A DNA stretch of 2,046 bases from Escherichia coli (GTDB lineage Bacteria > Pseudomonadota > Gammaproteobacteria > Enterobacterales > Enterobacteriaceae). Below, piece by piece: positions 973 to 1,258 of this stretch (positions are counted from its first letter, which is position 1; each line of letters begins with the position of its first letter). A program made the translations under genes and the position numbers. The stretch lies in the NCBI RefSeq assembly GCF_036507355.1, contig NZ_AP027885.1. The stretch is one strand, 5' to 3'. The notes under the pieces were generated by a model, which saw only the letters and a program-made list of their open reading frames with translations, was not told where the DNA came from and ran no database searches.

Positions 973-1106
973 GCGAGAGCCGCGCCCCACAAGGGCTGAG
1001 AGAAGGCTCTCTTCTGTATCTTATAGCGAGAAGCTCATATGCCCGGATAGCGAACCCTATTTTCATCGGTTCGTGCGTAAGCATTTCTATGCCCGTTCAG
1101 GTGATA

Positions 1107-1196
1107 TTCCGCTTCCTCGTTCAGGCTGTTCGTTCCTCGCTGCGCTGCGGTACGCCTCAGCCTGACCTGCGGCGAGCGGCGCGTGCTCTTTCAAAG
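1107..1196. other. Segment resembling the primosome-assembly / single-strand initiation (pas, n'-site) region found downstream of ori in ColE1/pMB1-type plasmids
   Basis: Hand comparison with the pUC/pBR322 sequence recalled from memory. Colinear exact blocks: ttccgcttcctcg (1107-1119), ctcgctgcgct (1136-1146), ctgcggcgagcgg (1167-1179), and a 9/11 match ctctttcaaag (1186-1196), with insertions between blocks. Needs confirmation by alignment. Confidence 0.35.
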
Positions 1197-1216: not shown

Positions 1217-1258
1217 TCGTCAAGGGCGAGCGTAGCGAGTGCCATTTACCCTTGACGA
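1217..1258. repeat. Inverted repeat with 10-bp perfect arms (TCGTCAAGGG / CCCTTGACGA) and a 22-nt loop, in the leader upstream of the relaxase gene
   Basis: Seen in sequence: 1217-1226 tcgtcaaggg and 1249-1258 cccttgacga are exact reverse complements. The right arm contains a TTGACG -35-like hexamer (1252-1257). Confidence 0.6.

Follow-up and report, generated by a model that had tools for sequence, protein, structure and literature searches.

What does a perfect inverted repeat do between the replication and mobilization genes of a very small enterobacterial plasmid? The window analyzed here, the whole stretch of 2046 bp, is an entire small circular plasmid of Escherichia coli, and its 580-bp intergenic region (901-1480) contains at 1217-1258 the element in question, which we call H1. 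Based on its conservation, compensatory changes, folding and genetic surroundings in other plasmids, we conclude that H1 is probably the upstream stem-loop of a strand-specific signal for initiation on single-stranded DNA (a single-strand initiation signal, ssi, or single-strand origin) that covers about 1211-1330 on the + strand. The repeat itself is made up as follows:

1217-1226, + strand: 5' arm of H1, TCGTCAAGGG, perfect inverted repeat, conserved
1227-1248, + strand: loop of H1, 22 nt, CGAGCGTAGCGAGTGCCATTTA, which contains AGCGTAGCGAG (1229-1239) and the CS-6-like TAGCGA (1233-1238)
1249-1258, + strand: 3' arm of H1, CCCTTGACGA, perfect inverted repeat, conserved

The original prediction had described a 10-bp perfect inverted repeat with a 22-nt loop, and this is exactly what the window holds: two 10-bp arms, 100% complementary and 22 nt apart. 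In dinucleotide-preserving shuffles with loops of 3-40 nt, perfect 10-bp inverted repeats are expected 0.068 times per plasmid and 0.032 times in the 580-bp intergenic region, so the accompanying estimate of 'order 0.1' was correct, if slightly conservative. One other E. coli plasmid (NZ_CP081700.1, 2028 bp) is 100% identical to the window, and dozens of plasmids of ~2.0 kb from Escherichia, Enterobacter, Klebsiella and Salmonella, mostly typed as mobilizable, match it at 95-97% identity. When comparing 11 plasmids of the window type, we found a mean pairwise identity of 0.98 for the 5' arm, 1.00 for the 3' arm and 0.88 for the loop, against 0.67-0.74 for the flanking spacers and 0.49 for the interior of the neighbouring primosome assembly site (pas), making the H1 arms the best-conserved stretch of the whole intergenic region. 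A lack of conservation in relatives was among the findings that the prediction had named as refuting it, and it survives that comparison because the arms are 98-100% conserved in these plasmids. The basal 7 nt of the 5' arm, T(C/T)GTCAA, are moreover common to a widespread block in IncFII, IncI/K-typed, Col(BS512) and ColpVC plasmids, and nine divergent plasmids have an arm homologous to the 5' arm, with compensatory changes.

On the + strand, H1 is followed by the other parts of this block:

1259-1285, + strand: spacer that separates H1 from H2; an A-rich motif, here TAAAACA, lies at 1268-1274
1286-1318, + strand: H2, GGTGGGGGGTGGCG / CGGAG / CGACGCCTTCCACC, stem of 14 bp, three of them G·T wobbles able to pair on + alone
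1318-1320, + strand: CTG directly 3' of H2 and overlapping its last base, the predicted primer start (primase trinucleotide), with synthesis leftwards

An A-rich run (e.g. TAAAAT, AAAAAC) stands at the equivalent place in relatives, in both the window-type and the widespread forms of the block, and 16 of 17 distinct relatives have the CTG after H2. Folding of the window places H2 in both the minimum free energy and the centroid structure of the + strand, and H2 is absent from the minus strand; the IncFII block folds at -32.1 kcal/mol on the + strand versus -27.3 kcal/mol on the minus strand, where H2 is not formed. Across homologues, the long form of H1 found in the widespread block has 95.7% of alignment cells paired, with 5 of 18 pairs changed on both sides and a covariation of 0.219 (0.109 when shuffled), and H2 has 85.1% of cells paired, with 8 of 14 pairs changed on both sides and a covariation of 0.260 (0.097 when shuffled). 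None of 500 shuffles reached the observed covariation in either case, and slid controls were 24-45% paired for long H1 and 43-54% for H2. The H2 covariation counts are conservative because the MAFFT alignment shifts the IncF-type rows by one column; wobbles were also counted by script from the base of the stem. Both H1 and H2 show the compensatory changes expected of two stable stem-loops maintained by selection.

The wobbles also assign the element to one strand. Homologues of H1 and H2 together have 50 G·T wobbles on the + strand versus 1 on the minus strand (12 versus 0 in H1, 38 versus 1 in H2), and all 12 pairable positions of H1 homologues that are not Watson-Crick are G·T on +, where the other strand would have A·C. 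Such a bias is not expected of a cruciform or of a symmetric binding site in duplex DNA and points to an element that acts as single-stranded + strand DNA. Wobbles, folding and the constant orientation described below all suggest that the H1-H2 block would work as single-stranded DNA (ssDNA) in one orientation only. By eye, we also noted a possible long-range pairing of 1092-1100 with 1259-1265 (GGTGA/TCACC in the window, GGAGTG/CACTCC in relatives L001, L005 and L007, with a register shift between lineages) that could enclose the pas and H1 and give an ssDNA three-way junction.

How far does this block extend beyond the window's own family? The unit composed of the H1 base T(C/T)GTCAA...TTGAC(G/A)A, the A-rich spacer, H2 and CTG has matches in 1,565 PLSDB records, with a relative from Erwinia (L011) serving as the bridge from the window type to the widespread block. 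H1 in the widespread form has a longer, 18-bp stem and a different apex of the GGGGCCCC type, variable in length. The carriers include:

L021 and L022, IncFII plasmids: in L021 the CTG lies ~592 bp beyond the repA stop, and synthesis primed there would move away from repA
L015, typed IncFIB + IncI-gamma/K1: block located 3' of the gene for the replication initiator
L016, Col(BS512): block present in a plasmid typed as non-mobilizable
L017, ColpVC, rolling-circle, with a Rep_1 HUH initiator (E = 6e-87): block co-oriented with rep
L018-L020, other small plasmids: block present

The pas together with the H1-H2 block is found with the helix-turn-helix (HTH) Rep of the window, another RepL and two further proteins, of 160 and 236 aa, and BLASTP among these proteins gave no significant similarity beyond a marginal RepL hit. 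The H1-H2 block accompanies at least four unrelated Rep types and a MOBV relaxase, a MOBP relaxase or none, and it is set apart from the module of origin of transfer (oriT) and mob in L003, L004 and L010, with an inserted gene in L004 and L010. Given these varied Rep and Mob types and the separation from oriT/mob, the block is neither a Rep site nor a part of oriT. The original prediction had offered membership in oriT as one possible role, and this option falls on the same separation and on the presence of the block in MOBP, IncF, IncI/K-typed and non-mobilizable plasmids. Wherever a window-type locus has an annotated mob, the gene is on the + strand (9 of 9) and the HTH rep on the minus strand, a constant orientation that would be expected for a signal that has to be on whichever strand a relaxase or a rolling-circle initiator exposes as ssDNA. 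A search of a phage collection with the block gave a single match and no Microviridae: OP617746.1 (Klebsiella phage KP13MC5-1, 174 kb) is 93% identical to it at 173431-173586, no more than ~550 bp from the end, which may be a plasmid fragment at the contig end or a genuine acquisition.

Around the block, the plasmid is organized into these modules:

1481, wrapping to 403, + strand: mobV relaxase gene (profile match to Mob_Pre, E = 7e-46)
900-466, minus strand: rep, encoding a 144-aa winged-helix protein that scores above the Pfam RepL threshold
1106-1179, minus strand: ColE1-type n'-pas (PriA primosome assembly site), boxes CCGCTCGCCGCAG ... CGAGGAAGCGGAA, with AGCGCAGCGAG at 1146-1136
1380-1393, + strand: predicted MobV oriT AAAGTCTAGTGAG/T, predicted nick 1392/1393, from its likeness to the pMV158 nick region
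1395-1402/1406-1413, + strand: 8-bp oriT inverted repeat CACTATCA/TGATAGTG, read from the sequence

The oriT/mob module (1362-1480) is a separate unit that always accompanies mobV. Its AAAGTCTAGTGAG/T matches ...AAAGTATAGTGTG/T of the minimal oriT of pMV158, which is ACTTTATGAATATAAAGTATAGTGTG with the nick at G/T on the coding strand of mobM (PMC5737340), so the + strand is the predicted transferred strand. CACTA at the oriT can pair with the upstream TAGTG (1387-1391) or inside the 8-bp repeat, reminiscent of the overlapping IR1/IR3 of pMV158. We rejected H1 itself as a MOBV oriT: the oriT-like sequence with the nick-region consensus (..TAGTGxG/T) lies at 1380-1413, not in the H1 element at 1217-1258, and the block also occurs without MobV.

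How, then, would the block act? Here we infer priming, the priming enzyme and the structural or recognition role of H1 from sequence and by analogy with known systems. Once the + strand is exposed, most plausibly by the MobV nick at 1392/1393 and delivery to a recipient and possibly during vegetative replication too, H1 and H2 would fold and resist coating by SSB. The folded structure would direct a primer to CTG 1318-1320, its maker most likely being DnaG primase as at the phage G4 origin, and DNA polymerase would then copy the + strand leftwards. The order of the modules leaves ~70 nt between this primer site and the 3' end of the transferred strand; one primer would therefore suffice for nearly all of the plasmid. 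The other strand would be served by the n'-pas beside the block (1106-1179, minus strand). Among the roles listed in the original prediction, being part of an ssi structure is the one supported, H1 being a stem-loop of a strand-specific block beside a ColE1-type n'-pas.

Like the complementary-strand origin of phage G4, the block is strand-specific and consists of stable stem-loops formed by ssDNA, the last of which has a CTG close to its 3' side. The annotation of G4 gives 3970-3997 for the primer and 3998 for the origin, and the primer begins at a CTG 3 nt after stem-loop I, which it copies; the window has a CTG start of this kind at 1318-1320, and CTGCAAAGCCA of L022 is identical to the G4 start site. 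The resemblance is architectural only, because there is no sequence homology beyond this CTGCAAAGCCA. The window also differs from G4 in that its H1 apex is replaced by the loop described in the next paragraphs and in having two clear hairpins, not three. In three plasmids that lack the pas (L017-L019), a further small hairpin stands ~20-55 nt upstream of H1 (CAGATTAAAATCTG, CAGATTGAAATCTG), which would bring their stem-loops to three as in G4. Through its homology to the element ~592 bp past the IncFII repA, oriented to prime away from repA, the window block can also be placed beside plasmid R1 (IncFII), in which a 'G site' that depends on primase reportedly lies ~400 bp past oriR and acts as a leading-strand start (work attributed to Masai and Arai in 1989 and Nomura et al. 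in 1991). The IncFII block agrees with this site in position and orientation. G4-type primase-dependent ssi of plasmids, including the 'G site' of R1/R100 and the ssi of ColIb-P9, are said to have been described by the same two groups and by Tanaka et al. in 1992.

Other plasmids offer parallels in layout. The order ssi-oriT-mob of the window mirrors ssoU-oriT-mobM of pMV158 (PMC5737340). RSF1010 has the ssiA and ssiB priming signals on opposite strands in one origin region (PMC8567376), a likeness to the oppositely stranded pair of signals here; it differs in that the RSF1010 sites are recognized by a plasmid primase, for which the window has no gene. The pHW126-like plasmids (pIGMS31, pIGRK), also small, combine MOBV with an HTH Rep and have their modules arranged as rep, repeats, conserved region and ssi; deletion of their ssi is non-lethal, raising copy number and causing multimers and instability (bioRxiv 10.1101/2022.12.05.519187; PMC6854812). 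Their likeness to the window is one of description and module order.

The base and the apex of H1 have different affinities. Small Firmicute plasmids of Enterococcus, Lactobacillus, Lactococcus and Staphylococcus carry a ~125-nt hairpin whose apex agrees with that of H1, CAAGGG-CGAGCGTAGCGAGTGC(C/T)ATTTA-CCCTTG, at 94-97% identity over 34 nt. This Firmicute hairpin combines an RSB-like TTATGCCGA, placed in the loop-distal part of the stem, with a loop that contains a CS-6-like TAGCGA, RSB and CS-6 being hallmarks of single-strand origins of the ssoA type (PMC8860593, PMC4598088), and oriT-mob-ssoA is a known cassette (PMC5090054). In Enterococcus p661-c (L013), the hairpin lies just downstream of mob/pre and on the same strand as mob and the HUH rep. 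The DNA identity of the H1 apex is far above that of the neighbouring genes, given that the two Mob proteins align only around the HxDE..PH motif. H1 thus resembles ssoA (palA; pMV158/pLS1, pT181, pE194) in its apex, in the CS-6-like TAGCGA of its loop (1233-1238; 5 of 11 close relatives begin it with A or G) and in its placement on the coding, transferred strand of mob, and it adjoins a MOBV mobilization cassette as ssoU and ssoA do in pMV158 (PMC5737340, PMC5090054). It differs in its enterobacterial host and in lacking the RSB in a long (~130-160 nt) imperfect hairpin: H1 has 42 nt and a 10-bp stem with no TTATGCCGA-like sequence, and its base and everything 3' of H1 belong to the enterobacterial block.

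From these sequences, window-type H1 looks like a chimera, with the base, spacer, H2 and CTG taken from the enterobacterial block and the apex from an ssoA-like element. A bolder form of this idea, in which a Firmicute CS-6 loop was grafted at the CAA/TTG junction across phyla, the 11-14-nt core AGCG(T)AGCGAG, present alike in ssoA loops, in n'-pas of the ColE1 type and in H1, is a common recognition determinant and the whole is a dual-mode, dual-host complementary-strand origin, strikes us as doubtful; strong selection on that core would then account for 94-97% identity over 34 nt beside Mob proteins that can barely be aligned, and such an origin would help MOBV plasmids to establish in both Gram-positive and Gram-negative recipients. 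Among the Firmicute-type hairpins, that of pR18 (L014, NC_019321.1, 2408-2536) is inverted relative to rep, unlike the co-oriented one of p661-c. Both fold slightly better on the strand with TAG(C/T)GA, and the position of their RSB-like sequence relative to CS-6 is not reconciled with the published description.

A second resemblance leads from the H1 loop to the neighbouring pas. ColE1 has a hairpin TGTGGATAA at 1271 next to its pas, which we take to be a DnaA-box hairpin; H1, in the equivalent place, has no DnaA box. The window's n'-pas, 38 nt from H1, is a genuine homologue of that of ColE1/pBR322, with matches of 83% and 100% to ColE1 1309-1382: window 1089-1123 is 83% identical to ColE1 1382-1348, CTGCGGCGAGCGG is fully identical, and the strand carrying CGAGGAAGCGGAA, judged by orientation, is the minus strand of the window. 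The ColE1 n'-pas (ssiA) recruits PriA and so starts lagging-strand synthesis (PMC3167613). Among relatives, the outer boxes of the n'-pas are 92-96% conserved, the 46-nt interior is 49% identical with its hairpin potential kept, and the n'-pas part alone is common to hundreds of large conjugative plasmids (Pantoea, Arsenophonus, Serratia, E. coli). Against an expectation of 0.03, the window has exactly two copies of the 11-mer AGCGNAGYGAG, one in the n'-pas (-) and the other in the H1 loop (+); the 14-mer CGAGCGTAGCGAGT of the H1 loop is identical in the ColE1 pas, and the pas of L004 carries CGAACGTAGTGAG, identical to the hairpin loop of pR18. The ssoA-like apex and this 11-mer are two independent links of H1 to priming elements.

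The original prediction had further noted that a motif of the repeat recurs near rep. This region holds:

973-968, minus strand: -35 (TTGACG) of the predicted rep promoter, followed by a 17-nt spacer and TAACGT, read from the sequence
925-942 and 946-963: two perfect 18-bp palindromic direct repeats, GTTATCAATAATGATAAC, upstream of rep and overlapping the predicted rep promoter

The recurrence is there, since TCGTCAAGCGAGAGC at 966-980 matches 1217-1231 at 13 of 15 positions. It carries no weight: exact 8-mers of the H1 hairpin occur 3 times elsewhere in the plasmid versus 2.5 expected, with at least one in 83% of shuffles, and relatives with a Rep 72-82% identical keep only (T)GTCAA at the 966 position (TATTGTCAAAA, TATGTCAAAT). 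Read on the minus strand, (T)GTCAA is the -35-like TTGACR of the predicted rep promoter, and the TCGTCAAG copy at 966 overlaps this predicted -35. The suggestion that the repeated motif is a binding site accordingly lapses, and TCGTCAAG as a Rep-binding motif was rejected given its conservation and the chance-level counts. In the 18-bp repeats themselves, relatives keep GTTAyC....GrTAAC but change the central bases of the two copies jointly (GTTATCTCTCAAGATAAC, GTTACCATTATTGGTAAC), which looks like an iteron or Rep operator with a specificity that follows the Rep variant. Amid unalignable surroundings, CTTCTGTATCTTAT (1008-1023) is nearly invariant in every plasmid whose HTH Rep is homologous; by analogy with the 'conserved region' of pHW126-like plasmids, in which the order rep, repeats, conserved region, ssi is the same as in the window, it may be the true origin or nick site. 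One relative (L002, NZ_CP040074.1, 1445 bp) has an extra isolated copy of the H1 loop at 561-580 (GCGAGCGTAGCGAGTGCCAT, 20/20), fused to a homologue of window 1030 at the common AGCGAG and followed by unrelated DNA, which looks like a recombination junction within the loop motif.

Which other roles could account for H1? The apex raises the prospect that H1 is a miniature ssoA-type origin, at which RNA polymerase would prime on the folded + strand and a short primer RNA would end at the loop TAGCGA as in plasmids of the pMV158/pT181 type, H2 and CTG being accessory. Its 94-97% identity over 34 nt to a hairpin downstream of mob in Firmicute rolling-circle plasmids, the RSB-like TTATGCCGA and loop TAGCGA of that hairpin, the excess of apex DNA identity over Mob protein similarity and the restriction of the H1-type apex to MobV plasmids among the retrieved loci all speak for it. 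We nevertheless regard it as unlikely, because the window has a 10-bp stem with no RSB-like sequence where a long imperfect hairpin would be expected, the first CS-6 base varies among close relatives (T, A, G), and other enterobacterial plasmids swap the whole apex for the unrelated GGGGCCCC type while keeping base, spacer, H2 and CTG. Moreover, in Gram-positives the use of ssoA origins is reported to be limited to particular hosts (PMC5703833), and neither scan nor inspection gave a workable -35/-10 arrangement. Pairs of such boxes around the TTGACG of the arms were considered and dropped, having spacings of 8-15 nt and no conserved -10. The shared 11-mer suggests instead a second hairpin for primosome assembly recognized by PriA on the + strand, the counterpart of the oppositely oriented n'-pas at 1106-1179, and the two occurrences of AGCGNAGYGAG against 0.03 expected, the CGAGCGTAGCGAGT identical in the ColE1 pas and the CGAACGTAGTGAG common to the L004 pas and the pR18 loop can be cited in its support. 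But H1 is on the opposite strand to the n'-pas and has none of the flanking boxes (CCGCTCGCCGCAG ... CGAGGAAGCGGAA) that are kept in all n'-pas copies compared, only the internal 11-14-mer being common, and the motif is missing from the alternative apex of the widespread block; we judge this role quite improbable, the neighbour at 1106-1179 being the one that qualifies.

Nor do the readings that rely on double-stranded DNA or on RNA fare well. That H1 is a palindromic duplex site for Rep, MobV or a host protein (an operator, origin or oriT element), or a cruciform, would fit a perfect palindrome with very conserved arms and a TCGTCAAG copy beside the Rep operator repeats. It is very unlikely considering that the block occurs with unrelated Reps and with different or no relaxases, apart from oriT/mob in L003, L004 and L010, that 12 of 12 non-Watson-Crick pairable positions in H1 are G·T on +, which is unexpected for a symmetric site or cruciform, that compensatory changes keep the pairing and not the sequence, and that the 966 copy is at chance level and unconserved. 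The two stable stem-loops of the region, and the T-runs found 12-15 nt past H2 in several relatives, would also suit a role of H1 as an insulator, as an intrinsic terminator or within a small structured RNA, of which the original prediction had named the terminator-like insulator. Yet H1 has a 22-nt loop, no T-run adjoins either stem, and the promoter and terminator scan called nothing at H1 or H2 (its only terminator-like sites being at 992-1011) and predicted no upstream promoter on either strand. The Rfam scan of the whole window likewise gave only a chance microRNA-like match, on the Rep operator palindrome. We judge this last role very unlikely.

The identification of H1 as a stem-loop of an ssi is itself exposed to several objections. 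One distinct relative (L019) has ATG in place of CTG. In window-type plasmids the H1 stem is nearly invariant, the sole change being an A-to-G in L006 that gives a G·T pair, so the covariation of H1 comes from the homologous long form. Local alignment of the block with the G4 origin is no better than with shuffles and shows no primary-sequence homology, and the equation of the IncFII block with the R1 'G site' is our own assumption, made from position and orientation. A purely structural role for H1 does not explain the very high conservation of the 22-nt loop, which extends across phyla. The Rep family may replicate by theta or by rolling circle, and that priming occurs on this sequence is deduced from sequence and structure.

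Signals of this general kind have long been known as ssi, G4-type sites and ssoA origins, and H1 is an unannotated member. An ssoA-like apex in an enterobacterial element and the motif held in common with the n'-pas appear to be new; we found no description of either in the searchable literature, including a search by sequence string. The element defined here is unannotated in a very common family of 2-kb enterobacterial plasmids and is tied to a block that has matches in 1,565 plasmid records. For small mobilizable plasmids, ssDNA must be converted to duplex after each transfer, and after each round of replication if they replicate by rolling circle, and the signals at which this conversion starts affect host range, copy number and stability. 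If the shared motif is functional, three classes of priming signal that are usually held to be unrelated would be connected.

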